Below, one piece after another: positions 36,514 to 52,660 of a stretch of 64,000 bases of DNA. The translations under genes and the position numbers were made by a program. The stretch is taken from NCBI GenBank assembly GCA_043717125.1, contig JAYSXP010000524.1, forward strand, positions 3,936 through 67,935, read 5' to 3'. Every line of letters begins with the position of its first letter. Within the stretch, counting starts at the first letter, position 1. Origin of the DNA: Polyangiaceae bacterium. GTDB taxonomy: Bacteria; Myxococcota_A; Polyangia; Polyangiales; Polyangiaceae. The notes beneath the pieces are model-generated. The model ran no database searches. It saw only the letters and a list, made by a program, of their open reading frames with translations, and was not told the DNA's origin.

Positions 36514-37187
36514 CAAGAAGGCTTAGGAACGACATCGCGCTTCGATCCCCACGTGCACGCGTCGCCCAAACGGACGCCGCTCCCGCGCGCTGCTGTTGCC
36601 TCTCTGCTGTTCTCGGGTACCTTTTTCAGAGATGAGGATCTTCTTCGCTGCCGCGATCGCGCTCGCCGGGATGGGCACGTCGAGCTGCAAGGATCTCGAT
36701 CCTCCCCCGCCTCCGCCTTTCCAGATCTTCATCCGGATCGACAGTGATCCAGGCCGCCCGATCGCCGGCGCCACGGTCTCCCGAAACAACAAGCCGCTCG
36801 GCACCACAGGCCCCGACGGGCGCGCGATGTTGACGGTCGTCGGGGCCGAGGGCGAGACCACTGACGTCACGATCAAGTGCCCGGATGCATTCACTTCTCC
36901 GGTGAAGGCGACGAGCATCCGCTTGACTCGATTCGCGGACAAATCGAAGGTCCCGGAGTACACGGTTTCGTGTCCGCCTTTGCTCCGGCGCGTCGTCGTC
37001 GCCGTGAAGGCCGAAAACGGCGCGAACCTGCCGGTCGTCTACCTGAACAAGGTCATCACGCGGACCGACATCTCCGGCGCAGCCCATTTTGCCCTGGAAA
37101 TTGCGCCGAATACGCAGTTCCAGGTGATGCTCGACACGACCGAGCACAGCAAGCTGAAGCCGGTGAGCCCGTCGAAGCCGTTCACGG
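36354..37187. repeat. 23-bp perfect inverted repeat pair (36354-36376 and 37165-37187)
   Basis: ccgtgaacggcttcgacgggctc is the exact reverse complement of gagcccgtcgaagccgttcacgg. Confidence 0.9.
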
Positions 37188-37291
37188 CTCCGGCGCACGA
37201 CGAGATCCTCGTTTTCGACCAGAAGTTCGACCTCGAGAAGGTCCGCGCGGTCGCGGCCCCGAGGCCCAACATCCCGAAGGCGCTCAACTAA
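36632..37291 (+). CDS. lipoprotein with carboxypeptidase-regulatory-like beta-sandwich domains
   Basis: Signal MRIFFAAAIALAGMGTSSC; PIAGATV...GTTGPDGRA and a second RTDISGAA motif. Confidence 0.72.
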   Translation: MRIFFAAAIALAGMGTSSCKDLDPPPPPPFQIFIRIDSDPGRPIAGATVSRNNKPLGTTGPDGRAMLTVVGAEGETTDVTIKCPDAFTSPVKATSIRLTRFADKSKVPEYTVSCPPLLRRVVVAVKAENGANLPVVYLNKVITRTDISGAAHFALEIAPNTQFQVMLDTTEHSKLKPVSPSKPFTAPAHDEILVFDQKFDLEKVRAVAAPRPNIPKALN

Positions 37292-37440: not shown

Positions 37441-37515
37441 TCGAAAATACGATGGAACGTTGCTCCGGAGACAACGCCTCGACCCCGGTTCCGTTCCCAG
37501 CGGTCAGGAACAAGC

Positions 37516-37531
37516 TGGCACCATTCGTGGA
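37516..37531 (+). promoter_or_regulatory. possible sigma54 promoter of the flp gene
   Basis: TGGCAC-cattc-GTGGA: perfect -24 element, -12 has GG instead of GC. Confidence 0.35.
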
Positions 37532-37617
37532 TATGTTGTCTGCGACGCAACGAGGCGGCGCAAACGGCGAGCGCGGCACTCAGCAACTCCCCACAGTCCA
37601 CGAAAGCGAGAACTCAC

Positions 37618-37788
37618 ATGTCCAAGGCCCAGACGCTCCTCTCCAAGACCCGCGGCGCCACCATCGTCGAGTACGCGATGCTCATCATCGCCGTCATGTT
37701 CATCGCGGCCGCGACGTTCCGCGTCCTCGGCAACAAGGTCAAGGACAACGCACAGAAGTCGACGGACGAAATCGGCAAGACCAGCTGA
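37618..37788 (+). CDS. flp: Flp-family type IVc pilin (56 aa, missed by ORF track)
   Basis: MSKAQTLLSKTRG|ATIVEYAMLIIAVMFIAAATFRVLGNKV...: G|XXXXEY Flp motif and hydrophobic helix. Confidence 0.92.
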   Translation: MSKAQTLLSKTRGATIVEYAMLIIAVMFIAAATFRVLGNKVKDNAQKSTDEIGKTS

Positions 37789-37906
37789 TTCGGGCCTCGT
37801 GGAAGCGTCGTGCTCGCGAGTGCATGCCTGAAGAGTGCACTCCGAGCCGCGCTGGGATATTCCTGACGGCAGGCGGGCGACAGTCGCCCGCACGAGACGA
37901 AGCCGG

Positions 37907-38461
37907 ATGTACGAACCGCTACCGCATCAGCACGTTGTTTTCATCGTTGCGATTGCGGTAGCCGCGCTTGCGGCTCTCTCGGACTGGCGACGCGGAGAGA
38001 TCCCGAACTGGCTCACCTACGGAGCACTGGGCGTAGCCCCGCTGCTCCACGTCGGCCGGATGCTCGCGGCGCACAACGCCGTAGAGAGCGCGCTCACGGA
38101 GGGCGGCTACTCGCTTCTCGGAGCGCTCGTCGCCGTGATTGTACCGGCGATGCTGTATCGGCAGGGCGCGATCGGCGGAGGAGATCTCAAGCTCCTCGCA
38201 GCTCTGGGAGCGCTCCTCCAGACCACGCTCGGCATCGAGGCCGAGATGTACGGATTCTTCGCGGCAGCATTGTTCGCCCCTGCGCGCCTCGCGTACGAGG
38301 GAAAGCTCATCGTGACGGTGAAGAACGCCGCCACGATTCTGGTGAACATGTTCTTGCCGAAGTCGAAGCAACGACATGTGGAGGAGACAGCGCTCTCGTG
38401 GTTTCGACTCGGACCTCCGTTGTTCTTCGGAGTCCTACTGACGGTCTACTTGCACTGGTAA
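37907..38461 (+). CDS. cpaA: A24-family prepilin peptidase (CpaA/TadV)
   Basis: SDWRRGEIPNWLT and GAIGGGDLKLLAALG catalytic Asp motifs; multi-TM. Confidence 0.9.
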   Translation: MYEPLPHQHVVFIVAIAVAALAALSDWRRGEIPNWLTYGALGVAPLLHVGRMLAAHNAVESALTEGGYSLLGALVAVIVPAMLYRQGAIGGGDLKLLAALGALLQTTLGIEAEMYGFFAAALFAPARLAYEGKLIVTVKNAATILVNMFLPKSKQRHVEETALSWFRLGPPLFFGVLLTVYLHW

Positions 38462-38497
38462 GCCGTTTGCAGAGTGTTTGAAGTGGAGGGCTCGACG

Positions 38498-38665
38498 ATG
38501 TTGCGTTGGATGCGAGCAAGCCGTCGAGGCGCTGTCATGGTCGAGTATGCGCTCCTGCTCATGGCAGTGGGCGTTCCTGCCGTTGTCGGCCTCACGGCTG
38601 GCGGCGTGCAGATGTTGACGAACTACAAGGACGCGCGCAACGCGATGTTGGCGCCGTTCCCGTGA
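38498..38665 (+). CDS. flp: second Flp-family pilin
   Basis: MLRWMRASRRG|AVMVEYALLLMAVG; GGAGG RBS. Confidence 0.85.
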   Translation: MLRWMRASRRGAVMVEYALLLMAVGVPAVVGLTAGGVQMLTNYKDARNAMLAPFP

Positions 38666-38676
38666 AGCACCCCCTC

Positions 38677-39192
38677 ATGAAAAACGAGACCCTCAGCAAG
38701 CTGCATGGTGACAAGCGAGGCGCAGTCCTCGTGGAGTTCGCCGCCGCTTTCCTGCCGCTGATGATCACGTTCTCGTGCTTCGTCCAGGTTGCCCAGCTTG
38801 CGACGGCGAAGCTCGTCGTCAAGCACAGCGCCGTCGTCGGCGCGCGCGCGGCGGCGGTTCTCACGAACGCGAAGGGGAACACGCCCGACCAGAAGAAGGG
38901 CGAGAACAACGCCGATGTCACCGCCGGCGTGAGAGCCGCGATGGGCCCGTGGGCAAAGACGATGGACAGCGTGGACGTCACGATCAAGGACGAGTCGAGC
39001 TGCGAAGACGATGGCCAGTACGGGCTCGTCAGCGTGACCGTCAAGGCGCAGTACAGGTGCAGCGTGCCGTTCGGCAGCCGCCTCCTCTGCGGTGCGTTCC
39101 ACGCGACGCGTAACTTCGAGCAGACCTACGGATTCCCCCATCAGGGAGCTCGCTACAAGGGCGACGGCGGCAGCTGCGGCGGCGGCAAGTAG
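38677..39192 (+). CDS. TadE-family minor pilin
   Basis: KRG|AVLVEFAAAFLP...HSAVVGARAAAV; alternative GTG start 38662 overlaps the flp stop. Confidence 0.85.
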   Translation: MKNETLSKLHGDKRGAVLVEFAAAFLPLMITFSCFVQVAQLATAKLVVKHSAVVGARAAAVLTNAKGNTPDQKKGENNADVTAGVRAAMGPWAKTMDSVDVTIKDESSCEDDGQYGLVSVTVKAQYRCSVPFGSRLLCGAFHATRNFEQTYGFPHQGARYKGDGGSCGGGK

Positions 39193-39209
39193 CACGAGGT
39201 GCAAGACAC

Positions 39210-40817
39210 ATGAGCGCCAAGACCAGCCTCCAAGACCTTCATCACGACAAGCGCGGAGCGATCATGCTGATCGGACTCTGCATGTCGTGTTTTCTGATCG
39301 GCTCGCTCTGGTTCCTCATCGGCATCGGTGACGCGATTGTCTTCCGCGACAGCATGCAGGAAGCCACCGACCACGCGACGTTCACGTCCGCGGTGCTGCA
39401 CGCGAAGGGGATGAACTTCATCTCCGCCTGCAACCTCATCATGCTCGCGCTGATCGCCGTTCACATCATCCTCGGGATCATCCACGACCTCGCGCTCGCG
39501 GCCTGCATCATCTGGTTCTGGACGTGCGGCGTCTGGATCCAGGCCCGGCGCGTCTACACGACGTACGCAAAGATTTTCAAGCCGGTCTGCGGTGCGATCC
39601 ACTTCGCAGAGCTCGGAGCGGCGTACGGCTACCCACTCCTCGCGGCGTACAAGGGCTACAGAATCGGCGCCGATTACGGAGAGTTTTCACCAAAGAAACA
39701 CGACGTAACCATGATCGTGATCAGCCCGTCGATCATCCCGGGCAGCTTGGTGTCGGCCGGCCTCAACAAGGCACTCACCAGCAAAGGCACGGGCAAGCCC
39801 GACAAGGACGGCAAGCCGACCGACGACAAGAGCCTCACCAGCACGAGCGAGACGAAGAAGGGCCTTCCCGTCGAGTCGAAGAAGTTCAACACCGTCTGCG
39901 AGAAGCTCGGCAGTGAGGTTGTCAGCGCAATCTTCGGCGCCCTCGGCGCAACCGGCACGGTGGCCAACAAGGTCGCGGGCTGGATCGGCAAGGGCGTCAA
40001 GTGGCGCTACTGCAACGACACGGGCTCTTCGACCCTCGACGGCGGATTCACCGGCGGCATTGCCGACGGCAACAACGGGATCGCCAAGCAGAACGCGGAC
40101 ATCGATAAGCAGAACGCAAAGGCCCCCAAGGGCTCGACGCCGCAGACCAAGCTCGACTCGGTGAGCGCGGGCAGCGGCAGCGGGACCGGGAGCGGCGGGT
40201 CGTGCATGAAGGACAACAGCAGCCTCGACCCGGGCTTCGACTCCTGGTGGGGCTGCCCCGGTCCGCTCGTCCCCTGGGGTGGCAGCGAGAACGGCAGCCC
40301 GTGGATGCAGGTCTGGGGCATCAATCTCCATCCCGACTTCAAGGACCATTCGGAGCACCGCGTGGGCGTCGCTCAGCGCAAGACGGGCGTGTCCTCGAGC
40401 GCCGAGGAGAGCATCTACTTCTCGCAGGCCGAGTTCTACTTCGATTGCAAGCAGGACTGGAAGCACGAGGAGTGCAACAAGGACGACAACGCTGGCTACT
40501 CGATCCAGTGGCGCGGTCGGCTCCGGCGCCTCGAGTTCCCGCAGATCGGCCAGATGATCAGCAGCTTCGCTGGGGAGTTTCTCGGGGGCCTGACGGCCTA
40601 CAAGGATTTCCAGAAGCTCATCGGGAACGGCGGAAAGGAGCCCGAGAAGGGGCCTGACGGAAAGGAGCCCGAGAAGGGACTCGCGGCGAAGGGCTTCGAG
40701 GCCCTCGTCGACAAGGCCTTCGAGAAGTTCGTCACCGACCCCCTCAAGGGCGTCATCAACAAGGCGGGCAAAGGCGCGGACAAGCTGCTCGACCCCGATC
40801 TCGGCGCCTACCACTGA
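39210..40817 (+). CDS. TadG-like large pilin / candidate tip protein
   Basis: KRG|AIMLI + TM, QEATD.A..TSAV..AKGMN Tad N-terminal motif; Cys-containing C-terminal domain; duplicated GKEPEKG. Confidence 0.7.
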   Translation: MSAKTSLQDLHHDKRGAIMLIGLCMSCFLIGSLWFLIGIGDAIVFRDSMQEATDHATFTSAVLHAKGMNFISACNLIMLALIAVHIILGIIHDLALAACIIWFWTCGVWIQARRVYTTYAKIFKPVCGAIHFAELGAAYGYPLLAAYKGYRIGADYGEFSPKKHDVTMIVISPSIIPGSLVSAGLNKALTSKGTGKPDKDGKPTDDKSLTSTSETKKGLPVESKKFNTVCEKLGSEVVSAIFGALGATGTVANKVAGWIGKGVKWRYCNDTGSSTLDGGFTGGIADGNNGIAKQNADIDKQNAKAPKGSTPQTKLDSVSAGSGSGTGSGGSCMKDNSSLDPGFDSWWGCPGPLVPWGGSENGSPWMQVWGINLHPDFKDHSEHRVGVAQRKTGVSSSAEESIYFSQAEFYFDCKQDWKHEECNKDDNAGYSIQWRGRLRRLEFPQIGQMISSFAGEFLGGLTAYKDFQKLIGNGGKEPEKGPDGKEPEKGLAAKGFEALVDKAFEKFVTDPLKGVINKAGKGADKLLDPDLGAYH

Positions 40818-40837
40818 GCCCGGCGAGGAACACGAAG

Positions 40838-41416
40838 ATGTCGATTCTCACCAAAGCAGCAAAGCTCAGGAGCCGCTCACGCCGCGCCTCGCGTGGCGCG
40901 GCGCTCGTCGAAGCCGCGGTCGTCATCCCGGTCATGTTGGTCTTCGCTGGCCTCACGATGTTCAGCTACCGCTCGTACGAGATGAAGTTCGACAAGCAGA
41001 TGGGAACGCGCGCCGGCACCCTTTACTACGCGTCGCACAGCTGCACGGGTGACATGCCTGCCAGTCTGGTACCCCCCTCAAAGCCAGTCGATGAGAGCGC
41101 GGATCCTGGCGGTGACCCGCTCCCGGGCGGCAACGCGACGGACCCGAGCCGACTCGGCGGAGACCAGGGCAGCATGGCGGGCGCCTCCGCCGGGCTGAAG
41201 AAGTCGGTGAGCTATGCGAAAAGCCAACCGAAAGACTCGCCCGTCTTCGCGAGCGTCGTCAACGACCGCAAGTCCGTGCCTCTCAATCGGATGATCAGCG
41301 CGGAATCCGAGGTCGCTTGCAACGAGAAGTCGTATCCGAACAAGTGGTCCGCCATGTTCAAGTTCCTTGTCGGGTTCGCGCAACAGGGCGGCGGACTCTC
41401 CAGCCCTCCGGAATAA
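40838..41416 (+). CDS. TadE-family minor pilin
   Basis: SRG|AALVEAAVVIPVMLVF prepilin-type N-terminus. Confidence 0.8.
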   Translation: MSILTKAAKLRSRSRRASRGAALVEAAVVIPVMLVFAGLTMFSYRSYEMKFDKQMGTRAGTLYYASHSCTGDMPASLVPPSKPVDESADPGGDPLPGGNATDPSRLGGDQGSMAGASAGLKKSVSYAKSQPKDSPVFASVVNDRKSVPLNRMISAESEVACNEKSYPNKWSAMFKFLVGFAQQGGGLSSPPE

Positions 41417-41428
41417 CGAGGAGAAGAG

Positions 41429-42469
41429 ATGTTTATCAGCCGTAGTTCGCGGAAGAACATGAAGCACGTCAAGGGACTCGTGCGCGCGGGCGCATACGTC
41501 CTCTGCGTCACCGCGGTCTTCGGCGTGGTCCGCGTTCGCTCCGCCCGCGCAGAGATGGCAGACCGCACCGTCGTCCTCGGTCGCCAAATGCTCACCCTCG
41601 CGAATGCGTCGACGCACGAAGTCAACAGGGTCGTGATCAACGGTCAGCCGATGTGGCTCGGTAACTCGATCGCCCACGACACAGGCAAGAATATCCTCGA
41701 TCGCTATCAGGCCTACTGCGAGTCGAACACGGCACAGTCCGCCGAGGACTGGCGCGCGGTCGCCACCGGCCCGAAAAAGGCGCCTGAGTCGAAGCTTGCG
41801 CCGACTGGCGTGATGCGTGGCGGCTCGGACAGCGAAGGCAGCGTCCTCTGCTTCACGAAGACGCCCAAATCGAAGCCGTCGCTCCTCGAGGCGATGAAGT
41901 CCTTCGAGGCGACCGGTGACCTCGGCGCATTGGGCGCTGCGCGGTACACCTACGTGAAGACGACGGAGCAGGGCAACACGCACGTCCTCACCGCGTGGAC
42001 GGACGACACGTTCAACGTCTCCGAGCTCGTCGGTGACGAGACGAAGGACGCACCCGGTATGGACTTCGGCGGTGACATCCCCCGCGTTCCCGACTCGCGC
42101 CGTGCGTTCTCCGCCCGCCTCGACGAGTCACCGTTCGGCGTGAACGTCTATCACGGCAAGGAGACGCCCTCGAAGACCCTGGGCTTCTACGATGGCGTCA
42201 TGCAGCAGGCCGGCTGGGCGGCGGTCGACCCCGAGCTCGAGAAGCGCGCGGAAGGCGGCAAGTCCGTGGCTCGCCTCTACGAGAAGGACAACGTCGTCCT
42301 CACCGTGGCCTCGACGCCGATGTCGGACGACCCGAAAGAAGGCTCGATGACGGTCCTCGGCATCGCCGGCGCATCCGGGCCGGGCGTCAATGCGGGCGCG
42401 AAACCCGGCACCGAGTCGGGCGCATCGTCGAAGTCGACGAACGTAACCCGCGAGACGAAGCAGGACTGA
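41429..42469 (+). CDS. hypothetical exported/membrane-anchored protein in the Tad locus
   Basis: N-terminal hydrophobic segment, GAGGAG RBS, no recognised family. Confidence 0.7.
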   Translation: MFISRSSRKNMKHVKGLVRAGAYVLCVTAVFGVVRVRSARAEMADRTVVLGRQMLTLANASTHEVNRVVINGQPMWLGNSIAHDTGKNILDRYQAYCESNTAQSAEDWRAVATGPKKAPESKLAPTGVMRGGSDSEGSVLCFTKTPKSKPSLLEAMKSFEATGDLGALGAARYTYVKTTEQGNTHVLTAWTDDTFNVSELVGDETKDAPGMDFGGDIPRVPDSRRAFSARLDESPFGVNVYHGKETPSKTLGFYDGVMQQAGWAAVDPELEKRAEGGKSVARLYEKDNVVLTVASTPMSDDPKEGSMTVLGIAGASGPGVNAGAKPGTESGASSKSTNVTRETKQD

Positions 42470-42548
42470 CGCTCGAAAGCGCGGCACTTATCTCTGCCGC
42501 AGCACGAGCCTTCCCGCGATCGCGGGCGACGTGTACCATCCACCAGGG

Positions 42549-43340
42549 ATGAATCGTCGCGCGTTACTCATCGCCGTCATCGTCGGCATCTTGGGCGTGT
42601 TCCTGCTGCTCCTCTACCAGCGCCGGTTCGAGCTCGAGGCGTCTGGCGGTGAGAAGGTGAAGCTTCTCATCGCCGTGCGGCGTCTCGAACGCGGCAAGCC
42701 GATTCCGGATGATGCGATCTCCGTGCGTGAGGTGCCCATCGCCTACGTCGACGATCGCTCGATCCGCGAGGTCGACAAGAACAAGGTCCTCGGCCTGCGC
42801 CTCGGCACCACGATTCGCGAGCAGCAGCTCCTCCTCTGGACCGACCTCGCCACCGGGTCCGACGAACGCAAGGAGCTGAGCTCCCTCGTGCTTCCTGGCT
42901 ATCGCGCAGTCTCGATCCGGGCGGCCCGCGACGACACGAGCATCACCCTCCTTCGCCCTGGGGACTACGTCGACGTCATCGGTGTCCTCGGCGCCCAGGG
43001 TGCCGAGGCGAAGAGCGCCGTCGTGCTCCTGCAGCGCGTGCTCGTCCTGGCCATGGGCAGCGAGACGTCTCCTGATGCCATGGATCAGAAGGACAATCGC
43101 AACAACGCAGAGAACCTCCTCACGTTGAGCCTGACCCTCTCCGAGGCGCAGATCATCGCGCTCGCCGCTGAGCGCGGACGCCTCGCCGTCGCCGTCCGTC
43201 ACCCCGACGACCAGCAGAAGGCAGGCGTCACGGACATCAACTTCGACTCCATTCTCGACCCGAAGAAGCGCGGCGAGATCCGAGGCGTCCGCGGCGGCAG
43301 CACGGCGCCCGTCAACATCACGGGCGGAGGCAGTCAGTGA
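42549..43340 (+). CDS. cpaB: Flp pilus assembly protein CpaB/RcpC
   Basis: N-terminal TM, SAF-like domain, PGYRAVSI, LLRPGDYVDVI, LLQRVLVLA, LTLSLT..EAQ. Confidence 0.9.
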   Translation: MNRRALLIAVIVGILGVFLLLLYQRRFELEASGGEKVKLLIAVRRLERGKPIPDDAISVREVPIAYVDDRSIREVDKNKVLGLRLGTTIREQQLLLWTDLATGSDERKELSSLVLPGYRAVSIRAARDDTSITLLRPGDYVDVIGVLGAQGAEAKSAVVLLQRVLVLAMGSETSPDAMDQKDNRNNAENLLTLSLTLSEAQIIALAAERGRLAVAVRHPDDQQKAGVTDINFDSILDPKKRGEIRGVRGGSTAPVNITGGGSQ

Positions 43341-44701
43341 GGGTTTGCTCTCTGGCGACTCTGCGCGGACGTGCAGCTCGTTCGTTCGCCGCGCGCGTCC
43401 TTGTCGCCCTCGCGGTGGGCGTGCCCGCCACGGCAGCCATGCTCGTCTCGAGCGAGGGCATGGCGCTCGCGCAGAAGGGCAAGGCCGGAGAACACGACGA
43501 GATCGCCCTCGCTGTCGGCGAAACGAAGACGCTCCCCGCCGGCGGCGTGAAGGAATACTCGGAAGGCGTGAAGGGCATCGTCGACGTCGTGCCGACGCCG
43601 GACGGCAAGACCTTCGTGCTCACCGGCAAGAAGCCCGGCACGACGACGCTCCTTCTCATCAAGACCGACGGCTCGCAGGTCACCTTCGACGTCTCCGTCG
43701 CGAATCGCAACCCGCAGCAGGTCGAGCGCGAGATCCAGCAGCTTCTCGAGCCGTTCCCCGGCGTGAAGAGCCGGCGCGTCGGATCGCGCATCTTCGTCGA
43801 AGGCGCGGTCCCCACGGACCAGGACTACAAGCGCATCCAGCAGATCGTGACCGTCTACGGCGGCCAGGTCGATTCGCTCGTCACTGTGGGTGTCGCCGAG
43901 CGCAAGCTCCTCATCCGTCTCGACTTCTTCTTCGTCCAATACTCGAAGACGTCCGGTTACAACGTCGGCGTCGGCTGGCCGGGCAACATCGGCGGGACGA
44001 CCCCGGGCGGGCAGCCCATCGTCAACAGTACGTACAGCTACGACTTCGTTTCGCGCACGACCCAGACGGCCAACGCGTCGGTGGTGAACCAGCCGCTTCC
44101 GCGTCTCGACATCGCGGCCCGTCATGGGTGGGCGAAGGTGATGAAGCAATCGAGCGTCATCACGGCGAACGGCAACGAGGCGACGTTCCAGAACGGCGGC
44201 GAGTCGAACTTCCTCATCTCCGGCGTCGGCGCCGCTGCCCTCGTCAGCGTCAAGTTCGGCACGAACATCACCGTGCTCCCGCGCTACGACTCGAACTCGC
44301 GCGACGTCGATATCAAGCTGGTCGCGGATGTCGCCGACCTCACGCCACCGAGCAGCGCGGCCGGTCCGCCCGGACGCTTGACCACGAAGCTCGAGACGCA
44401 GGTCACCCTGAAGCTCGGCCAGGCGCTCATCCTCTCCGGCATCAAGACGTCGGCGCAGCAGCGCAACGTCGCGGGTCTGCCCGGGCTCAGCGAGATCCCT
44501 GTCCTCGGTCTTCTCTTCGCGACGCACGCGCAGGAAAAGCAGGACGTCGAGGGCGCCGTCTTCATCGTCCCCAGCGTCGTCGACACGGTGCCAAAGAGCG
44601 CGCTCGAGCTCATCAACAACGCGATGGGGACCTACCGCGAGTTCGCTGGCGAGATCGAATACGTCGACACATTCCCCAAGACCCCGCCGTCCGCGAAGTA
44701 G
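43337..44701 (+). CDS. cpaC: Tad secretin CpaC/RcpA
   Basis: LTGKKPGTTTLL N-domain; NGNEATFQNGGE, KFGTNITVLP, GLPGLSEIPVLGLLF secretin signature. Confidence 0.88.
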   Translation: MRVCSLATLRGRAARSFAARVLVALAVGVPATAAMLVSSEGMALAQKGKAGEHDEIALAVGETKTLPAGGVKEYSEGVKGIVDVVPTPDGKTFVLTGKKPGTTTLLLIKTDGSQVTFDVSVANRNPQQVEREIQQLLEPFPGVKSRRVGSRIFVEGAVPTDQDYKRIQQIVTVYGGQVDSLVTVGVAERKLLIRLDFFFVQYSKTSGYNVGVGWPGNIGGTTPGGQPIVNSTYSYDFVSRTTQTANASVVNQPLPRLDIAARHGWAKVMKQSSVITANGNEATFQNGGESNFLISGVGAAALVSVKFGTNITVLPRYDSNSRDVDIKLVADVADLTPPSSAAGPPGRLTTKLETQVTLKLGQALILSGIKTSAQQRNVAGLPGLSEIPVLGLLFATHAQEKQDVEGAVFIVPSVVDTVPKSALELINNAMGTYREFAGEIEYVDTFPKTPPSAK

Positions 44702-44712
44702 CGGTAGGCAAG

Positions 44713-44734
44713 CACGTGTACAGGCGTACACGTG
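44713..44734. other. intergenic perfect inverted repeat (9-bp arms)
   Basis: CACGTGTAC-aggc-GTACACGTG between the secretin and ATPase genes; no U-tract. Confidence 0.6.
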
Positions 44735-44769
44735 TAGACGCGTGACGGAGAGGTTGCCGGATCCCCAAC

Positions 44770-46689
44770 ATGCACTTGCAAGTCGTCGTCCAATCTGACG
44801 ATGGGATGCAGCGAACGGAGCTCTACCCGGCGAACGGTCCCCTTACGATCGGGCGCCATCCGCAGTGCTCGCTCCGCCTCGACAGCGATCTCGTCTCCCG
44901 CCAGCACGCCGTGATCCAGGCCGGTCACGGCACGCTGCGCGTGGAGGACGTGTCGACGAACGGGACCATCGCCGGCGACCTGCTCCTCCGTCGCGATTCC
45001 GTCGAGGTGCCGTACGGGACGCCGATCGTCGTGGGCGACTTCACGGTCTTCGTCTACCCGGGCGATCAGCAGAACGCGGCTTCGCTCGCAGCCCAGCATC
45101 CAAGGACGAACCAGCAGGTCCCCGGGCAGGGTTCGCAGCAGGGGATCGACACGCGACCGCGCATGGGCGGCTCGCCCAACCAGGGCGTCGCGCACCCGCC
45201 GGGCTCCCCGCAGCACATGGCGAACGTGCACGGTATGGGTCCCCCAATGCCGCCCGGCGCCAACGGAATGATGGCGCGCACGGGGACAGGCCCGTACGGC
45301 GCGACGGGCGCCATTCCGGCCGTGAGCGGCATGAACCCCGTCATCGCTCACGTCGGCTCGCAGCCCGGTCCGCAGGGCGTGCACCTGCCGGTCGCGATGC
45401 GCAACGACGACGCGAAGCTCAAGGCAGAGGTCGAGCTCCGTCGCGAGATCCACAAGCTCCTCCTCGAGCACCTCGACCTCGCGACGATCGACGCCAAGAA
45501 GCTCGACGATCCGTCGATGCGTCCGAAGGTGCTCAACGCGCTCCGGAGAATCGTCGCGAGCCTCGAGTCAAAAATCCCGAAGGAGGTGCAGCCCGACACG
45601 CTGATCGGCGAGCTCGCCGACGAGGCGCTCGGTCTCGGCCCGCTCGAGCGCTTCCTCGCCGACCCGACCATCAGCGAGATCATGGTCGTCGATCCGAACA
45701 CGATCTACATCGAGCAACACGGCAAGATCACGCTCTCGCACGCGCGCTTCACCGACGACGAGCGCGTCCGCGCGGTCATCGAGCGCATCGTGACGCCGCT
45801 CGGACGCCGCATCGACGAGTCGTCGCCGCTCGTCGACGCGCGACTGAAGGATGGCTCGCGCGTGAACGCCGTCATTCGCCCGATCGCGCTCCGCGGCTCG
45901 TGCATCACGATCCGAAAATTCGCGAAGATCCCGATCACGCTCGAGAAGATGGTCTCGTTCGGCACGCTGACGGACCGCATGGGACGCTTCCTCACGCGAT
46001 GCGTCCACGCGAAGAAGAACATCGTCATCTCCGGCGGTACCGGCTCCGGAAAGACGACGCTGCTCAACATGCTCTCGGGCGCGATCCCCCCCGAGGAGCG
46101 GATCGTGACGATCGAGGACGCCGCCGAGCTCCAGCTGAAGCAGCCTCACGTCGTCTCCATGGAAACGCGCCCCGCCAACCTCGAAGGGCGCGGCGAGTAC
46201 ACCATCCGCGATCTCGTGAAGAATGCGCTTCGCATGCGCCCCGACCGCATCGTCGTCGGCGAGTGCCGCGGCGGCGAGGCGCTCGACATGCTCCAGGCGA
46301 TGAACACCGGCCACGACGGCTCGCTGACGACGACCCACGCCAACTCGCCGATGGAAGCCGTCAGCCGCCTCGAGACGCTCGTCCTGATGGCAGGCCTCGA
46401 GCTTCCGATGCGCGCCATCCGCGAGCAGATTGCCGCCAGCGTTCACGTCATCGTTCAGCAGAGTCGTCTGTCCGACGGCTCACGCAAGATCACCGCCATC
46501 AGCGAGATCGTCGGCATCGATCGCGAGTCGAACGAGATCGAGATGCGTCCCATCTTCGAGTTCATTCGCACCGGCACCGGCGACAACGGCAAGGTCGAGG
46601 GCGAGTTCCGCGCGACCGGCTACCTGCCTTCGTTCATTCCGACCTTCATCGTCATGGGCCTGGTCAAGCGCGGAGAGCCTTACCTGTGA
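44770..46689 (+). CDS. cpaF: FHA-domain-fused CpaF/TadA pilus ATPase
   Basis: FHA: IGR...VSRQH...STNGT; Pro/Gly/Gln linker; GLGPLE, DARLKDGSRVN, GGTGSGKT, IED..EL, RPDRIVVGE, MNTGH. Confidence 0.93.
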   Translation: MHLQVVVQSDDGMQRTELYPANGPLTIGRHPQCSLRLDSDLVSRQHAVIQAGHGTLRVEDVSTNGTIAGDLLLRRDSVEVPYGTPIVVGDFTVFVYPGDQQNAASLAAQHPRTNQQVPGQGSQQGIDTRPRMGGSPNQGVAHPPGSPQHMANVHGMGPPMPPGANGMMARTGTGPYGATGAIPAVSGMNPVIAHVGSQPGPQGVHLPVAMRNDDAKLKAEVELRREIHKLLLEHLDLATIDAKKLDDPSMRPKVLNALRRIVASLESKIPKEVQPDTLIGELADEALGLGPLERFLADPTISEIMVVDPNTIYIEQHGKITLSHARFTDDERVRAVIERIVTPLGRRIDESSPLVDARLKDGSRVNAVIRPIALRGSCITIRKFAKIPITLEKMVSFGTLTDRMGRFLTRCVHAKKNIVISGGTGSGKTTLLNMLSGAIPPEERIVTIEDAAELQLKQPHVVSMETRPANLEGRGEYTIRDLVKNALRMRPDRIVVGECRGGEALDMLQAMNTGHDGSLTTTHANSPMEAVSRLETLVLMAGLELPMRAIREQIAASVHVIVQQSRLSDGSRKITAISEIVGIDRESNEIEMRPIFEFIRTGTGDNGKVEGEFRATGYLPSFIPTFIVMGLVKRGEPYL

Positions 46690-46696
46690 GGCGCAC

Positions 46697-47569
46697 ATGA
46701 AGCACCCCGTGATCCACACGCTCGACGTCATGCGCTGGGGCAGCGTCGGGGCGACCGCGCTCTGTCTCACGGTCGGAGCGTGGGCCATCGTCGACGACGA
46801 GACGGGCCTGCCGTACCGGTACTGGGCGCGTTACTGCGCGATGCTCGAGCGGAAGATGCGCTCGATGTTCAACTTCACGCCGGGGCGTCTCATCGCGCTC
46901 GGGCAGCTCGCGGTGATGTTCCTGATCGTCGCGGCGCAGCTCACGTTCGACATCCCGGGCTGGTACCTCGGCATCCTGCTGACCGCCATCGGCCCGACCA
47001 TCTACCTCGAGTCGGAGCGCCGCAAGCGCATCCTCCAGATTGAAGACCAGATCGACGGCTTCATGCTGGCGCTCGCCAACGCGCTCAAGGCGACGCCGAG
47101 CATCGGCGCCGCGTTCAACGGGGTCGTGACCGTTCTCCAAGAACCGATCCGATCCGAGGTCGATCTCGCGCTGAAGGAGATGCGCGTCGGCTCGACGCTC
47201 GATCAGGCGCTCCTCCACATGGCTGCGCGCGTCGGTAGTCATCAGCTCGACTCGGCGCTCTCGGCCATCCTGATTGGCCGGCAAGTCGGTGGAAATCTCC
47301 CGAAGGTTCTCGAGACGACCGCGACGACGCTCCGCGAGATGAAGCGCCTCGAAGGCGTCATCCGCACGAAGACGGCCGACGGCCGCATGCAGCTTTGGGT
47401 CATCGGCGCGATGCCGATCGTCGTCATCGTCTGCCTCGGTACGCTGTGGCCCGGCTACTTCGATCCGCTCACATCCAGCCTCGCCGGCTACGGCATCACC
47501 GCCTTCGTCATCACCGCGTGGGTCTCGGCGCTCGTGCTGGCCCGCAAGGTCCTCTCCGTCGACATCTGA
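46697..47569 (+). CDS. tadB: TadB inner-membrane platform protein (T2SSF family)
   Basis: ANALKA, EMRVG...AL, RQVGGNL, R.KTADGR; multi-TM. Confidence 0.88.
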   Translation: MKHPVIHTLDVMRWGSVGATALCLTVGAWAIVDDETGLPYRYWARYCAMLERKMRSMFNFTPGRLIALGQLAVMFLIVAAQLTFDIPGWYLGILLTAIGPTIYLESERRKRILQIEDQIDGFMLALANALKATPSIGAAFNGVVTVLQEPIRSEVDLALKEMRVGSTLDQALLHMAARVGSHQLDSALSAILIGRQVGGNLPKVLETTATTLREMKRLEGVIRTKTADGRMQLWVIGAMPIVVIVCLGTLWPGYFDPLTSSLAGYGITAFVITAWVSALVLARKVLSVDI

Positions 47570-47578
47570 GAAGAAGCC

Positions 47579-48502
47579 ATGGACCTCAAGCTCAGCGGCG
47601 TAAGTCTCATCGTCCTCCTCTATCGCTTCGGCGCGGCTGGGGCGTTCTTCTTCGCGCTCGCCATCGCGACCTACAGCGTCACGAGCGCACCTACGCGCGT
47701 CGCGAGCAGGCTCGGCCTCCGCGGCCTGAAGCGCCAGCGTGCCCTCGCGAACAACGACGCCTGGGCCGCGATCGAGCCGCTCGTGCGCTGGCTCGGCGTG
47801 CGCGTCAGCGGGATCCCCACCGAGGAGCAGCGCGCTGCGCTCGACAAGCAGCTCTCGCTCGCGGGCGACTACCTCGGCCTCACCCCTGAGGAATATCTCG
47901 CGCTCTTCATCGTGTCGGCCGTCGGCGGCCTCGTCGTCGGGCTCGCCGGCGGCGCCTTCTTCGACATGGTCGTCCTCCTCAGCATCGTCGGCACGGTCAT
48001 CGGCGGGGTCGCGCCGTACATGATCGTCAGCGGCGAGGCTCAGGAGCGCATCAAGAACATCAGTCGCGGCCTGCCGTACGTCATCGACCTCATGGCGCTC
48101 GCGATGAGCGCTGGTCTCGACTTTCCAGGCGCGGTTCGCCAGGTCGTCGACAAGTCCTCCAACCCCGAGGACCCGATCGTCGAGGAGTTCACGCTGATTC
48201 TCCAGACCCTGAACCTCGGTCGCACCCGAAAGGATGCCCTCGTCGCGTTCTCCGAGCGTGCCCCCACCATCACGGTGTCGGAGTTCGTGAGCGCCCTCGT
48301 GCAGGCCGAAGAGCGCGGAAACCCTGTCGCAGACGTCCTCCTCATCCAGGCAGGAACGTCCCGGAGCCGCCGCTCGATCCGTGCCGAAGAGCTTGCCGCC
48401 AAGGCAGGCGTCAAGATGACGGGACCGCTCGCACTCATTCTCTTCGCCGTCCTCGCGTTGGTCCTCGGACCTGCGATGATGGGTATGACCAACAACCTCT
48501 GA
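47579..48502 (+). CDS. tadC: TadC inner-membrane platform protein
   Basis: LPYVIDLMALAMSAGL, LGRTRKDAL, QAEERG, AEELAAKAGVKM..PL. Confidence 0.9.
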   Translation: MDLKLSGVSLIVLLYRFGAAGAFFFALAIATYSVTSAPTRVASRLGLRGLKRQRALANNDAWAAIEPLVRWLGVRVSGIPTEEQRAALDKQLSLAGDYLGLTPEEYLALFIVSAVGGLVVGLAGGAFFDMVVLLSIVGTVIGGVAPYMIVSGEAQERIKNISRGLPYVIDLMALAMSAGLDFPGAVRQVVDKSSNPEDPIVEEFTLILQTLNLGRTRKDALVAFSERAPTITVSEFVSALVQAEERGNPVADVLLIQAGTSRSRRSIRAEELAAKAGVKMTGPLALILFAVLALVLGPAMMGMTNNL

Positions 48503-48506
48503 GCCC

Positions 48507-49373
48507 ATGCGACACCTCAGATTCCAGATAAGACTGCACACCGGGCAGGTCGATCAGCTCACGATGGAGGCCGAACGCGTCCTCATCGGAAGCGGCGCCC
48601 ATTGCGAGATCAGGCTCCCCGTCGATCAGGCGCGCGTCGAGCATGTCGCGCTCGAGCTCGGCGCCGCGGGCATCTTTGTCCGCGCGCTGAATTTCGAGCC
48701 GCCTCCGACGATCAACAACATCCCGTTCCAGCAGGCGCCGCTCCCCGCGGGGTCGGTCCTCGGCATCGGCGGCTGCCAGATCCAGGTCGAGATCACCGAG
48801 GGCGGCGGCGAGGCTGCCGGCAAGCAGAAGAAGAAGACGAGCCCGATCATGCTCCTTGCGATGGCGATCATCGTCCCCGCGGGCATGTACATGATGTTCG
48901 CCGAAGAACCGGAGCGGGCAGAGAAGGTCTCGCCCAAGCTGGCGCCTGAGCTCTGGCAGGCCCCCGTCACGTCGTGCCCGTACACTGGGGGTCAGGCGCT
49001 CGCCTTTGGTCGAGAAAAGATGGCCCTCGCAGACGCCAAACGCGAGCGTCGACCGTTCCATGTCCAGGACGGCGTTCAAGCCGTTCCCACGTACGAGGCC
49101 GCTGCGGTATGTTTCCGGGCCGGCGGGGACGCCGCCTCAGGAAGTCTTGCCGAAGAATCGGCCAAGTTCCTTCGCCGTGATATCACTGTTGATTTCCGGA
49201 CACGGCGCGTCAGGCTCGACCATGCGATGGCGACCGAGGACTTCGCAAGCGCCCAAAAAGAGGTCCGGGTTCTCCTACAATTCTGCGAGGGCAAGTCCGG
49301 CGACTACGTCACATGGCTCTCCAATCTCGAACGAAAACTGAAGCTAAGGGGCGACGCGACGAAAAAGTCGTAG
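48507..49373 (+). CDS. membrane protein with degenerate N-terminal FHA-like domain
   Basis: VLIGSGAHCEIRL....VEH...INN...G..L.IGG (FHA-like fold lacking GR/SxxH), TM, helical C-terminal domain. Confidence 0.65.
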   Translation: MRHLRFQIRLHTGQVDQLTMEAERVLIGSGAHCEIRLPVDQARVEHVALELGAAGIFVRALNFEPPPTINNIPFQQAPLPAGSVLGIGGCQIQVEITEGGGEAAGKQKKKTSPIMLLAMAIIVPAGMYMMFAEEPERAEKVSPKLAPELWQAPVTSCPYTGGQALAFGREKMALADAKRERRPFHVQDGVQAVPTYEAAAVCFRAGGDAASGSLAEESAKFLRRDITVDFRTRRVRLDHAMATEDFASAQKEVRVLLQFCEGKSGDYVTWLSNLERKLKLRGDATKKS

Positions 49374-49375
49374 CC

Positions 49376-49945
49376 TTGTGGGTGGCTTGCGCCTGCATGC
49401 TCGGTCTCGTGGAGACGCGTTGTGGTCCCGCGACCACCGCGGAAAGAGCTCAAGCCGACATGGCTACCCTCCGCACAGAGACGACCACGGACAAGTTGCT
49501 CGACCGCGGCAAGGCTTTCGCGGCCATCGGGGATCACACACGCGCAGAGGAGTACCTCGCAGCGGCCCTCGACCAAGGTGCCGACCCACGTGAGACCTTA
49601 CCGCTGCTCCTCAACGTCTGCGTCCAGACGGGTCGATACCGGTCCGCGATCCAGCATGCCGAGAACCACCTGCGGAAGCACCCGGACGACGTGCGCACGC
49701 GCTTTGTCGTCGGAACGCTCTACGCTGCGATCGGCGAGACGAAAGACGCCAAGAGCAACCTGGAGACCGTCGTGAGCGCGCGTCCCGATGACTCGAAGGC
49801 GCACTACACGCTCGGCGTCCTCGCCCGCGACAGCGAGAACGACCTCGTCGGCGCCGACCGTCACTTCCGCGAATATCTGCGCATCGAGCCGAACGGGTCT
49901 CACGCCGAGGAAGCCCGCGCTTCGCTCCTGAAGAGGATGCCTTGA
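49376..49945 (+). CDS. TPR-repeat protein (TadD/pilotin-like)
   Basis: TPR-like helices (AHYTLGVL, FREYLRIEPNG..AEEAR); start uncertain (49313, 49376 or 49397). Confidence 0.72.
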   Translation: MWVACACMLGLVETRCGPATTAERAQADMATLRTETTTDKLLDRGKAFAAIGDHTRAEEYLAAALDQGADPRETLPLLLNVCVQTGRYRSAIQHAENHLRKHPDDVRTRFVVGTLYAAIGETKDAKSNLETVVSARPDDSKAHYTLGVLARDSENDLVGADRHFREYLRIEPNGSHAEEARASLLKRMP

Positions 49946-51090
49946 GCAGTGACGTCATCCCCAAAGAGGTCTTCGAGGAAACGCTCCTCCAGTTCCTCGC
50001 GCCGATCCGCCCGTTCCTCGATGACCCGGCGGTCAGCGACATCATGATCAACGGCCCCTTTCAGATCTACGTCGAAAAGAAGGGCCAGCTCCACCTCACG
50101 AACGCGCGCTTCGAGACGCGGGAAGCGCTCGTCGCCGCGCTCCGCAATGCTGCGCAGTTCGTCGGTAAGCACATCGACGAGCTCAAGCCGATCCTCGAAG
50201 GTCGCCTCCCGGATGGCTCGCGTATCGAGGCCGTCCTTCCGCCCGCCGCGCCCGACGGACCGTGCGTGTCGATTCGCCGGTTCTTCAAGGAGACACTCAC
50301 CGTCCAGCGCCTCGTGAACTTCGGCGCCCTCACGCCCGACGTCGCGAGCACACTTCAGGCGCTCGTCGTCTCGAAGCTCAACATCCTGATCGCGGGCGGT
50401 ACCGGAAGCGGCAAGACGTCGATGCTCAACGCGCTCTCGTCGTTCATCCCCGAGGGCGAGCGCGTGGTCGTCATCGAGGACTCGCGCGAGCTCCAGCTGC
50501 AGCGACAGCACATCTGCATGCTCGAAGCGCGCCCGCCGGATCCGAAGGGCCGCGGCGAGGTGACGATTCGCGATCTCTTCCGCGCGACGCTGCGTCTGCG
50601 CCCCGATCGCATCGTCGTCGGCGAAATCCGCGGCGGAGAGGCGCTCGATCTGATCCAGGCCATGACCTCGGGTCACGGTGGATGCATGTCGACGCTCCAC
50701 GCGACCTACCCGCGCGATACCACCTCGCGCCTCGAGACGATGGCGATGATGAGCGACGTCGAGATGCCGCTCACGGCGCTGCGAAGTCAGCTCGCCTCGG
50801 CGGTCAACATCATCTGTCAGGTCTCGCGCCTGCAGGACGGCAGCCGCAAGATCACGCACATCACCGAGGTGCTCGGCTTCGACCCCAACAAGGCAGAATA
50901 TTTGCTCCAGGACATCTTCGAGCGCCAGTACCACGGCTTCGACGACAAGGGCGCGATCCTCAGCGACATCGTTCCGTCGGGGATCTTGCCGCGATGCTTG
51001 CCGCAGCTGCACGAGCACGGCGTCGACTTGCCTGCGTCGGTGTACGAGGCAGCCAAGAACGCGGAGACCGGCCAGAATCGTTATGGCTAA
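49942..51090 (+). CDS. cpaF: second CpaF/TadA-family ATPase
   Basis: DIMING, GRLPDGSRI, GGTGSGKT, IEDSREL, RPDRIVVGE, MTSGH; TTG start overlapping the TPR gene stop. Confidence 0.92.
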   Translation: MSSDVIPKEVFEETLLQFLAPIRPFLDDPAVSDIMINGPFQIYVEKKGQLHLTNARFETREALVAALRNAAQFVGKHIDELKPILEGRLPDGSRIEAVLPPAAPDGPCVSIRRFFKETLTVQRLVNFGALTPDVASTLQALVVSKLNILIAGGTGSGKTSMLNALSSFIPEGERVVVIEDSRELQLQRQHICMLEARPPDPKGRGEVTIRDLFRATLRLRPDRIVVGEIRGGEALDLIQAMTSGHGGCMSTLHATYPRDTTSRLETMAMMSDVEMPLTALRSQLASAVNIICQVSRLQDGSRKITHITEVLGFDPNKAEYLLQDIFERQYHGFDDKGAILSDIVPSGILPRCLPQLHEHGVDLPASVYEAAKNAETGQNRYG

Positions 51091-52660
51091 TCCGCAGACG
51101 ACCCACGTCATCGAGATCGAGACGGGCATCGGAGAGCCCGCCTTCATCCCGCTTTCCATGGGTCATGAGCTCCAGCCCATCAGCGTCGGCAAGAAGGGCA
51201 TGTGGCGGATCGAGTCGGCGCGCGTGCTCGACGTACACGCGTTCGTCTACTTCGACGGGTCATCGCTGTTCTTGCAGAGCGCGGACGAGCAGAACGCCGC
51301 GAGCGTCGACGGCTACCGTGTCGGCAAGGCGTGGACCGAATTGCATTCACCATGCAAGATCGAGATCGGCAACGCGCGCCTGCGGTATCGGTCGCTGATC
51401 GCGGACGCCGACAACCAGCCCACGATGATGGCGCAGGCGCCTCCCGTGCAGGCGGGTCCTGGCGGGCCCGGCAGCCCGCTCGGTGGTCCCGGTCCGAGCG
51501 GCTCGAGGCCCGGCGGCGGCCCGGGCGCCTCGATGCCCGTCGCCGGCGCGCCTCCGCCTCCAGCCGGCAGCGCTCCATGGCTCTCGTTTCCGAAGGCAGA
51601 GCGTCCCTTCAAGCCGGGGGAGTTCTCCTCCGCCTCGGATACGGACGAGTCGACGCGCATCGCTCCGCTAGATGCGACCGGCGGAGGTCGCGTCGCGTCG
51701 GGCTCTCATCCGAGACCCGCCGCGGGGCAACCGGGCGACGACTTTTCGACGCGCTCCGAAGCCGTGCGCGTGATGCGCGGACAGAGCGGTGCCGTGCCGG
51801 CGATCGGAGGCCCGTTCGACGGAACGGGCATGCAAGGAGCGCCCGGCAATCCGATGCAATTGGGCGCGTTCCCGCAGCAAGGCTACCCGCCGCCGCAGCA
51901 GCAGTTCGCGAACCAGTTGTATCCGGGCGCGGCCGGCTCCGGCCAGTACGGTGTCGTCTCCGGACCGTCCGGTATGCCCGGACCGATGGACCCGAGCATG
52001 CCGCCGCCGGGTGGCTACGGCTCGATGACGCCCTTGGGCGGAATGCATCAGCCCGGTGCACTGCAGGGCGCGACGAACGACGCGAAGAAGAACACGTCGA
52101 TCCCGAAGATCGTCGCAAGCCTCCTCTTCATCGCGGGCAGCATCCTTTATCTCGCCGTGGACGACGACCCGCAGCCCGCGAAGAAGAAGCCCGTCGCCTC
52201 GGCCGACGCCGGCTCGGTTGGGACCGGGGTCGCAGTTGGCAACGGTACCGGCGCAGCGCCAGCAGACGCGAGTGCCGGCACGGCCGTTCCCCCCGTGATG
52301 GGACAAGCCCAGACCGTCGCGCCGGCGTGGCCGCCGGGAGTCCCCTGCCCTCCGCCGAACTGGCCCCCGAACACACCGCTCCCCTGCATGCCGAACGGCA
52401 TCAGCAGCACGCCCGATCGAAACCCTCCCGACAGGGGTGGCAAGGACGGCGGCGCCAGGAGCAGCTCCGACAAGGATGCGGGCACGCTCCCGGCCGGCTC
52501 CAAGACGCTCGAGCGTCAGGCTGTCGACTACGTGGCCGCGGGCGAGATTGCGAAGGCTGCTGCGGCCTACGAAGAGCTCGTGCGGCGTGACCCGAACAAC
52601 AAGGTCTACGCGGAGGCTGCGCGCATCCTACGCGGCAAGCTCGACGCCGGTACGCCGTAG
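51083..52660 (+). CDS. FHA-like / Pro-Gly-rich / TM / TPR protein
   Basis: ISVGK...VLDVH...VDG...IEIG FHA-like N-terminus, low-complexity linker, TM (IVASLLFIAGSILYL), C-terminal AAYEELVRRDPNN TPR-like. Confidence 0.65.
   Translation: MANPQTTHVIEIETGIGEPAFIPLSMGHELQPISVGKKGMWRIESARVLDVHAFVYFDGSSLFLQSADEQNAASVDGYRVGKAWTELHSPCKIEIGNARLRYRSLIADADNQPTMMAQAPPVQAGPGGPGSPLGGPGPSGSRPGGGPGASMPVAGAPPPPAGSAPWLSFPKAERPFKPGEFSSASDTDESTRIAPLDATGGGRVASGSHPRPAAGQPGDDFSTRSEAVRVMRGQSGAVPAIGGPFDGTGMQGAPGNPMQLGAFPQQGYPPPQQQFANQLYPGAAGSGQYGVVSGPSGMPGPMDPSMPPPGGYGSMTPLGGMHQPGALQGATNDAKKNTSIPKIVASLLFIAGSILYLAVDDDPQPAKKKPVASADAGSVGTGVAVGNGTGAAPADASAGTAVPPVMGQAQTVAPAWPPGVPCPPPNWPPNTPLPCMPNGISSTPDRNPPDRGGKDGGARSSSDKDAGTLPAGSKTLERQAVDYVAAGEIAKAAAAYEELVRRDPNNKVYAEAARILRGKLDAGTP

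Follow-up and report, generated by a model that had tools for sequence, protein, structure and literature searches.

What does a tight adherence (Tad, type IVc) pilus locus do with two ATPases and no TadZ, and is it a weapon? The question is raised by 16 co-directional genes at positions 37618-52660 (+ strand) of a 64,000-nucleotide stretch of DNA, here called the window, from a Polyangiaceae bacterium (GenBank assembly GCA_043717125.1, contig JAYSXP010000524.1). An original prediction, made from the letters and their translations, had seen in it a consolidated, single-locus relative of the prey-killing Kil system of Myxococcus xanthus, with FHA modules in place of TadZ. The reading that we favour, with a probability of roughly 60%, is that the locus encodes a TadZ-less Tad pilus that belongs to the Kil lineage and has two ATPases of ancient divergence, CpaF1 being the likely platform motor and CpaF2 a likely accessory motor that would act on or beside CpaF1. 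The genome assembly that contains the window is 77% complete, which qualifies the negatives given below for this genome.

The two ATPases and the genes that figure with them in the argument are as follows.

44770..46689 (+): CpaF1, with FHA domain, linker, three-helix bundle and ATPase; a class III CpaF and likely counterpart of KilF (PF00498 and PF00437; GR, SRxH and NG motifs kept; trees).
49942..51090 (+): CpaF2, a second T2SSE ATPase, without the three-helix bundle; orthologue of M. xanthus MXAN_0759 (alignment, model, motifs, clade support 100/100).
51083..52660 (+): gene 16, with a degenerate FHA-fold, a proline-rich linker, a transmembrane helix (340-358) and a C-terminal TPR; KilD-like architecture (N-domain profile reaches KilD-type FHA at 1e-11 to 1e-30; weak TPR match).
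48507..49373 (+): gene 13, with a degenerate FHA-fold, a transmembrane helix (114-132) and a helical C-domain; positional equivalent of MXAN_4649 (Yop-YscD_cpl at E 8.7e-5, below cut-off; phosphothreonine motifs lost).
36632..37291 (+): a conserved lipoprotein of 219 residues without a Pfam family, counted here as gene 17 of the system (homologues accompany the locus and CpaF2).

CpaF1 fits the class III architecture of CpaF (PMC12019362), namely an FHA domain, an intrinsically disordered region, a three-helix bundle, an N-terminal domain and a C-terminal ATPase domain; in a profile search its FHA domain is found at E 8.6e-12, fused to T2SSE. Both ATPases share the two-domain core and the catalytic motifs with Caulobacter CpaF (PDB 8rjf, 8rkd, 9e24), but CpaF2 aligns with that protein from residue 148 onward only. 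In the predicted structure of CpaF2 (pLDDT 88) one short N-terminal helix stands in place of the three-helix bundle, and the Walker A, Asp box, Walker B and His box are all intact. The bundle has been described as part of the minimum architecture of CpaF and called indispensable, with FHA-fused CpaF forming class III (PMC12019362). CpaF2, being without the bundle, therefore falls outside all three CpaF classes.

The differences extend to the hinge and the central loop. Among 43 rows of the CpaF2 clade, the hinge G-x-G pair is found in none, the central-loop Asn is replaced by Asp in all, and 3 retain the Glu that matches E331 of CpaF; the hinge and loop positions are 94-100% conserved in 50 rows of CpaF1 and canonical CpaF (groups taken from the tree, some rows being near-identical and rows C472 and L040 left out). 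Function is lost in the Caulobacter mutants G147A/G149A and E331K, the latter in the loop, and the central loop has been modelled against CpaG/CpaH (PMC11300603). Taken with these mutants, the lost residues suggest that CpaF2 is a conserved ATPase whose usual contact with the platform has been rewired or lost. One further protein (P0095) has the FHA domain and linker of the CpaF1 type joined straight to a CpaF2 body, which may reflect a genuine gene fusion, a deletion within the gene or an error of assembly.

The trees indicate that the two ATPases parted long ago. CpaF2 forms its own clade with SH support of 99 in a tree of 95 ATPase rows, and with support of 100/100 on a stem of 0.57 in a 50-row subset, run with a careful search and without the long rows C472 and L040. 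The clade takes in M. xanthus DK1622 ABF88515/Q1DE98 and the second CpaF of Bradymonas, while CpaF1 groups with WP_111331211, which is the Bradymonas KilF according to Herrou's table. Recent duplication is rejected by approximately unbiased (AU) tests both within Polyangiales (p 2e-83) and within Myxococcaceae (p 1e-25; genomes reached via G384), all AU tests here being made on LG+G4 quick trees, which are more prone to long-branch joins. The trees are unrooted, contain long rhizobial branches, and are built from rows other than Caulobacter and Aggregatibacter sequences. As judged from them, CpaF2 is an ancient paralogue of CpaF1; the two are 47% identical.

The remainder of the locus was placed with a concatenation of CpaF1, TadB, TadC, CpaB and CpaC from 30 loci (LG+G4 quick tree, two genes having been dropped beforehand). 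The window joins other Polyangia, then Bradymonas-type loci, then the Kil loci of Myxococcaceae (SH 89, not starred), and is closer to the Bradymonas-type than to the Myxococcaceae Kil loci. Of the latter, one (L051) is kil cluster I by gene order, and another (L071) is cluster II, with kilH and kilG of 891 and 846 bp as in M. xanthus. A grouping with eight canonical TadZ-type loci is rejected (p-AU 1.5e-8), in line with the original prediction. Membership of the Kil lineage, rather than of canonical TadZ-type Tad, is favoured by the best tree. Core orthologues of KilA, B, C, F, G and H are present, including the FHA-fused ATPase.

The absence of CpaE/TadZ from the locus, which had been claimed at the outset, is borne out, and a tblastn search of the 77%-complete genome with seven TadZ/CpaE queries gave no match at E<=1e-4. 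The same seven queries do recover one another. In four closed relatives TadZ queries gave ParA-level matches only (E 7e-8 or weaker). The AAA_31 profile has 10 matches in the window's own genome, and nine of these proteins resemble what we take to be Soj, ArsA, Wzc, FlhG/MinD, CooC and Ffh. PF16968 (TadZ_N) was tried as a marker and dropped as uninformative, being silent in the genome and in all 14 controls. In three loci of families f31 and f48 (L018:9165-11417, L041 and L044) we observed TadZ-TadA fusions like Bdellovibrio TadZA, the Pfam check having been made on L018.

CpaF2 appears to travel with partners. Homologues of the lipoprotein flank the locus in 13 loci or contigs (L019-L023, L035-L037, L046-L049 and C430 of the own genome). 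In the Bradymonas-type genomes the ATPase is detached from the core, and there (L010:11610-15857, L011, L012) the gene next after CpaF2 encodes a membrane protein whose kinase-like domain is weak, and a lipoprotein homologue comes after it. Of five closed same-family genomes, the three that have the ATPases also have the lipoprotein, and it was not found in the two that are without them. From this pattern of neighbours the upstream lipoprotein is judged to be part of the system, and the original list of genes, although correct for its 16 members, had overlooked it.

The locus is not a local oddity. Close CpaF2 homologues bear the names Labilithrix sp. and L. luteola, so that the organism is Labilithrix-like, in agreement with the Polyangiales host that had been proposed. 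All 24 of the 24 same-genus genomes searched have CpaF2, with 83-98% identity (in one of them a partial copy cut by a contig end). When other families of the order were sampled by one genome each, 11 of 16 gave an ATPase match; in two genera of the window's own family, either ATPase is found in 0/6 and 0/14 genomes. The order cpaB-cpaC-cpaF1-tadB-tadC-FHA/TM-TPR-cpaF2 (TM, transmembrane) recurs in all 10 same-order loci that were fetched, one of them with an insertion, these loci having been picked for an ATPase match. Three of four same-class loci share the core order, and so do families f27, f38 and f53, without a match to the TPR lipoprotein. This recurrence across genus and order marks the locus as a lineage-wide system. 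Since Polyangiales and several further families share the contiguous order, it is likely to be the older state, as far as unrooted trees allow, and the idea of a consolidated locus has probably to be reversed.

The claim of a single locus holds for contiguity and fails for uniqueness, since the own genome contains at least three more partial or rearranged copies (contigs C655, C144 and C430). Their tip pilins are divergent, and two of the three also hold CpaF2. Additional flp-like genes lie on contigs C62 and C643. Another genome (G389) has five near full-length cpaB matches plus fragments, and a single KilF-type ATPase.

Two further occurrences are worth adding. In a reduced genome of 1.8 Mb (G127), whose ATPases carry the NCBI name Pajaroellobacter abortibovis and in which there is no SctV/FlhA match, the locus is kept from the lipoprotein and cpaA through gene 16 (L020:1978-17090); no paper bearing the name Pajaroellobacter was among the literature matches listed. 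The Rhizobium leguminosarum plasmid pRL23b5 (L028:2232-14444) carries a related locus that has no secretin or TadZ but does have both types of ATPase, an FHA protein and a homologue of gene 7 (HHalign 93.5%). A count by marker gene finds the rhizobial locus on 89 plasmid records, possibly following an old horizontal transfer.

It is of interest that M. xanthus itself has a protein of this kind. The 90% cluster of a Myxococcaceae short-type protein contains DK1622 ABF88515/Q1DE98, the gene of which is MXAN_0759, 1797 bp long and adjoining ung as in locus L052 (table in PMC9548883). It is expressed, at the same order of level as kilF (PMC9548883). The short-type ATPase, in which the match starts past the three-helix bundle, occurs in 63 of 81 Myxococcaceae genomes: 60 have both ATPases, 7 the KilF type only, 3 the CpaF2 type only and 11 neither (a tally by hand, in which kin are not independent, many genomes are metagenome-assembled, and the unpublished G427 is among the 60). 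The Myxococcaceae versions bear an extra proline-rich C-terminal tail. In one genome (G426) some 18 kb separate the CpaF2 gene from a set of TadE, TadG and TadE genes, which is taken by position to be Tip2.

The original prediction credited Kil with two ATPases, but the accessible parts of the Kil papers (PMC8460266, PMC12075869) name one. With an unlinked CpaF2 orthologue in M. xanthus, the guess may turn out right, as an open prediction. The contiguous locus still shows the gene neighbourhood that M. xanthus has lost, and by this association it points to MXAN_0759. A literature search, to which subscription papers and some supplements were largely external, returned no bundle-less second Tad ATPase and no mention of MXAN_0759. 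A search for MXAN_0745-0749, 0752 and 0755-0760 found no paper, while the control MXAN_3107 did match. A second, bundle-less ATPase with membrane partner and lipoprotein, and the link to MXAN_0759, appear to be undescribed.

The other genes complete a Tad system. All 16 open reading frames were verified, and their coordinates and profile matches agree with the co-directional Tad set first proposed.

37618..37788 (+): Flp pilin 1, 56 residues, probably the major pilin (G|ATIVEY motif, one hydrophobic helix).
37907..38461 (+): CpaA/TadV prepilin peptidase, counterpart of KilA (PF01478, A24 peptidase, E 1e-15).
38498..38665 (+): Flp pilin 2, 55 residues (G|AVMVEY motif; conserved in the relative locus L021).
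38677..39192 (+): TadE-like minor pilin (G|AVLVEF motif; connected by iterated profile to annotated TadE and to pilins of the KilL/M type).
39210..40817 (+): large minor pilin of TadG/KilN-like type, tip backbone (connected by a profile of its N-terminus to KilN-type proteins and to annotated TadG).
40838..41416 (+): second TadE-like minor pilin (G|AALVEA motif; iterated profile).
41429..42469 (+): gene 7, membrane-anchored, with a predicted DcrB/PA1624-type C-terminal domain (family alignment, structure model).
42549..43340 (+): CpaB/RcpC, counterpart of KilB (TIGR03177, 126.9 bits, the cut-off being 71).
43337..44701 (+): CpaC/RcpA secretin, counterpart of KilC (PF00263, E 1.4e-24; PF13629, T2SS-T3SS_pil_N).
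46697..47569 (+): TadB/KilG platform protein (PF00482).
47579..48502 (+): TadC/KilH platform protein (PF00482).
49313..49945 (+): TPR lipoprotein, probably a TadD-type pilotin, with an uncertain start codon (TPR families; orthologues have a signal peptide, then Cys).

The Tad set is complete, with Flp pilins, A24 peptidase, RcpC/CpaB, secretin, TadA, TadB, TadC and TadE/G pilins. The Flp and TadE-like pilins gave no passing Pfam match, and show the prepilin motif G|xxxxE; E5 is missing from the TadG-like protein. Local iterated profiles tie the TadE/TadG-like pilins to annotated TadE and TadG. The genes are closely packed, with gaps of -61 to +118 bp (12 of 15 being 36 bp or less), three overlaps of 4-8 bp, one of these being the 8 bp between the cpaF2 stop and the gene 16 start, and one of 61 bp at the TPR lipoprotein gene with its uncertain start. 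Scans for sigma-70 promoters and terminators were at or below chance (0 against 1.1 and 8 against 9.1, respectively). The G+C content falls to 0.63-0.67 over the locus, from 0.67-0.70 upstream, with its minimum at the pilin genes (window 36001-52000). Upstream, an open reading frame at 35498-36166 resembles the C-terminal half of KamA-family radical SAM aminomutases. Just past the locus, at 52722-55368 (- strand), lies a convergent trio, with one gene for an extracytoplasmic function (ECF) sigma factor, one for a membrane protein that is probably anti-sigma-like, and one for a protein of unknown kind.

The model of gene 7 (pLDDT 75) aligns with 6td9 in VIA-align with Z 11.1 and rmsd 3.0 over 106 residues, and gave no Foldseek match at E<=0.001. 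Its similarity to the protein at the MXAN_4657 position is weak (HHalign 9.7%, E 0.003).

FHA domains bind phosphothreonine through the motifs GR, SRxH and NG. CpaF1 keeps all three in 6/6 Polyangiales rows. In gene 13, GR and NG are lost in 5/5 rows, and in gene 16, SRxH and most other FHA marks are lost in 6/6. Both accessory proteins are FHA-like, as first proposed, since iterated profiles recover the fold, but it is degenerate. They are the positional and architectural counterparts of the KilD, MXAN_4648 and MXAN_4649 types; the Myxococcaceae KilF, KilD and MXAN_4648/4649-type proteins retain the phosphothreonine motifs. Given that the motifs are kept only in the FHA domain of CpaF1, phospho-control is plausible for CpaF1 alone, and the folds of genes 13 and 16 are by their sequence more likely scaffolds. 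This leaves the suggestion that FHA modules replace TadZ weak. Acidic-Thr motifs were considered as FHA ligands in gene 16 and in the Myxococcaceae CpaF2 tail and gained no support, there being none in the window protein and few elsewhere. The functions of the Kil FHA proteins are described as unknown in a review (PMC10433427).

How, then, does the locus compare with known systems? The Kil genes of M. xanthus form two clusters, one at MXAN_3102-3108, the other at MXAN_4648-4661 (PMC8460266, PMC12075869). In the list of Seef (2021) the one ATPase is KilF, which combines FHA and P-loop; KilD follows KilF, and two FHA genes come after kilH (PMC8460266), and Herrou (2025) describes KilF as the polymerisation/depolymerisation ATPase (PMC12075869). 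The window locus is like Kil in its Tad core, FHA-fused ATPase, FHA membrane protein right after tadC, FHA-TM-TPR protein after an ATPase, TadE/TadG/TadE trio, lack of TadZ and position in the concatenated tree. It differs in being contiguous, with the second ATPase inside (unlinked MXAN_0759 in M. xanthus), in its degenerate accessory FHA domains, in a trio distinct from Tip1-4, and in that no cluster for the needle-less type III secretion system T3SS*, the partner of Kil, was found. The Kil-like locus of Bradymonas sediminis (DN745_00680-00700; PMC8460266) shares the contiguous run cpaB-cpaC-FHA cpaF-tadB-tadC-FHA, a second CpaF and a lipoprotein homologue, but its CpaF2 module is detached and the membrane partner has a pseudokinase-like domain in place of the FHA fold. 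From canonical Caulobacter and Aggregatibacter Tad the locus is set apart by two ATPases and by the failure to find TadZ. In the predator-associated Tad of Bdellovibrio bacteriovorus (bioRxiv 10.64898/2026.07.08.737194) FHA/TPR genes are neighbours too, and tadA has additional paralogues, one of them the isolated tadA3; this system differs from the window locus in its TadZ-TadA fusion and in assembling at the pole.

For Labilithrix, Kil homologues have been published before. One study reports Tad(kil) genes for Labilithrix, Minicystis, Sandaracinus and Chondromyces but none for Sorangium or Polyangium (PMC10196010); Herrou's table gives near-consecutive kilB, F, G and H matches in the same four genera, with Tip1-4 and KilP entered as NA (PMC12075869). 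A rival view, compatible with the favoured one on anatomy and different on the biological role, is that the locus is a contact-dependent prey-killing machine equal to Kil in function. The phylogeny, the FHA-ATPase and the FHA gene after tadC, the relatives in Bradymonas, the reported presence in predatory Polyangiales but not in Sorangium or Polyangium, and the as many as four copies in the own genome, with tip pilins that diverge, are all consistent with this. However, L. luteola has two copies (L021 and L022) and is reported to be non-lytic on E. coli, M. luteus and yeast (review PMC9556981), and the table lists no Tip1-4 or KilP for Labilithrix. None of nine T3SS*-specific open reading frames (flhB/sctU to sctV, from 20 kb of the cluster) matches the own genome or the L085-L087 regions. 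The locus is also intact in the 1.8-Mb genome without SctV/FlhA, and a homologous one sits on the rhizobial plasmids. Prey killing by this locus is therefore doubtful; it would need extra parts, and none were found here. Most likely the pilus serves to attach to other cells or to surfaces when triggered by contact. These Labilithrix, reduced-genome and rhizobial loci caution that the presence of kil genes does not make a predator.

The export-gene matches in the own genome appear to be flagellar or orphan. An SctV/FlhA-like gene with no other export-gene match nearby was seen on C288 (5880-7769), as in L087 and L086, and C331, C369 and C633 hold export genes of flagellar type, apart from it.

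PilU works through PilT, and we hypothesise a comparable arrangement here. CpaA would mature the pilins, and CpaF1 would engage the TadB/TadC platform and extend the Flp pilus, with its TadE/TadG/TadE tip, through the secretin. Recruitment of CpaF1 might depend on a phosphothreonine signal read by its own FHA domain. CpaF2, held at the membrane by the gene 16 protein and the lipoprotein, might then boost retraction or dismantle the machine, in the style of PilU. An accessory role is supported by the co-occurrence of CpaF2 with the primary ATPase, and by the lipoprotein, which stays with CpaF2 outside the core locus.

Several observations weigh against this picture. An exclusive clade of Polyangia and Kil is rejected (p 1e-4), so that for the proposed Kil type a broad placement in the lineage is favoured and exclusive sisterhood is not; and the link between CpaF1 and Myxococcaceae KilF is unstable, with SH 95 in the 95-row tree and no resolution in the 50-row tree. 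The CpaF2 gene of Myxococcaceae lies far from both kil clusters, with no lipoprotein homologue nearby, and MXAN_0759 shows no clear rise with prey (values of 52-69 in the presence and absence of S. meliloti, at both 2 h and 6 h; PMC9548883). A single CpaF suffices in Caulobacter (PMC11300603), and deletion of kilF alone abolishes Kil pili (PMC12075869). One Rhizobium locus (L082) has the core genes and no second ATPase annotated within 12 kb, which suggests that the Rhizobium version may not need CpaF2.

Among the alternatives for CpaF2, the one that survives best is that it is a dedicated retraction motor, the PilT of Tad, which replaces CpaF1 on TadB/TadC through a rewired interface. PilT, as compared with PilB, is without N-terminal domains, and the trimming of CpaF2 parallels this. 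The catalytic motifs are intact, and the central loop has not decayed but been replaced by a conserved D-x-x-G-[RK]-G pattern. Kil pili do retract (PMC12075869). Nevertheless, the residues lost are the platform-facing ones conserved in all other CpaF, and Tad has been described as a single-motor, bifunctional system (PMC11300603, PMC12019362), and we consider a stand-alone retraction motor unlikely.

Less probable still is a separate trans-envelope signalling or positioning module of CpaF2, gene 16 and the lipoprotein, standing in for TadZ or serving another process, with no motor. Such a module would suit the Bradymonas-type trio, which lies apart from the core, and the lack of a free TadZ in CpaF2 loci. 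It would also suit a CpaF2-clade ATPase fused to cyclic-nucleotide (cNMP)-binding, MshEN and FHA domains (L050:8651-10852), a possible link to cyclic-nucleotide signalling. However, the full hexameric-ATPase motifs are retained, and two genomes with a TadZ-TadA fusion (G053 and G281) carry a CpaF2-clade ATPase elsewhere too, so CpaF2 is not a strict TadZ substitute. A canonical adhesion Tad with a recent or decaying ATPase duplicate, which the ordinary core gene set might suggest, is highly improbable in view of the AU rejections under the models used, the low identity of the paralogues, the high conservation of CpaF2 and the lack of any TadZ found. We therefore favour the accessory motor.

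Tad pili are the reference case for a single ATPase that carries out both extension and retraction. A conserved second ATPase without the bundle, in Polyangiales, Bradymonas-type bacteria and Myxococcaceae, challenges both the single-motor view and the view that the bundle is indispensable. It is tempting to go further, though only tentatively and with rather less than even confidence, and to suppose that Kil-lineage Tad was ancestrally two-motor, that CpaF2 is a fourth, bundle-less class that powers retraction, and that MXAN_0759 is a missing Kil component with which the pilus would pull on, or withdraw from, prey. If this were true, it would mark the first case of a Tad system that divides its labour among ATPases, as PilB and PilT/PilU do.

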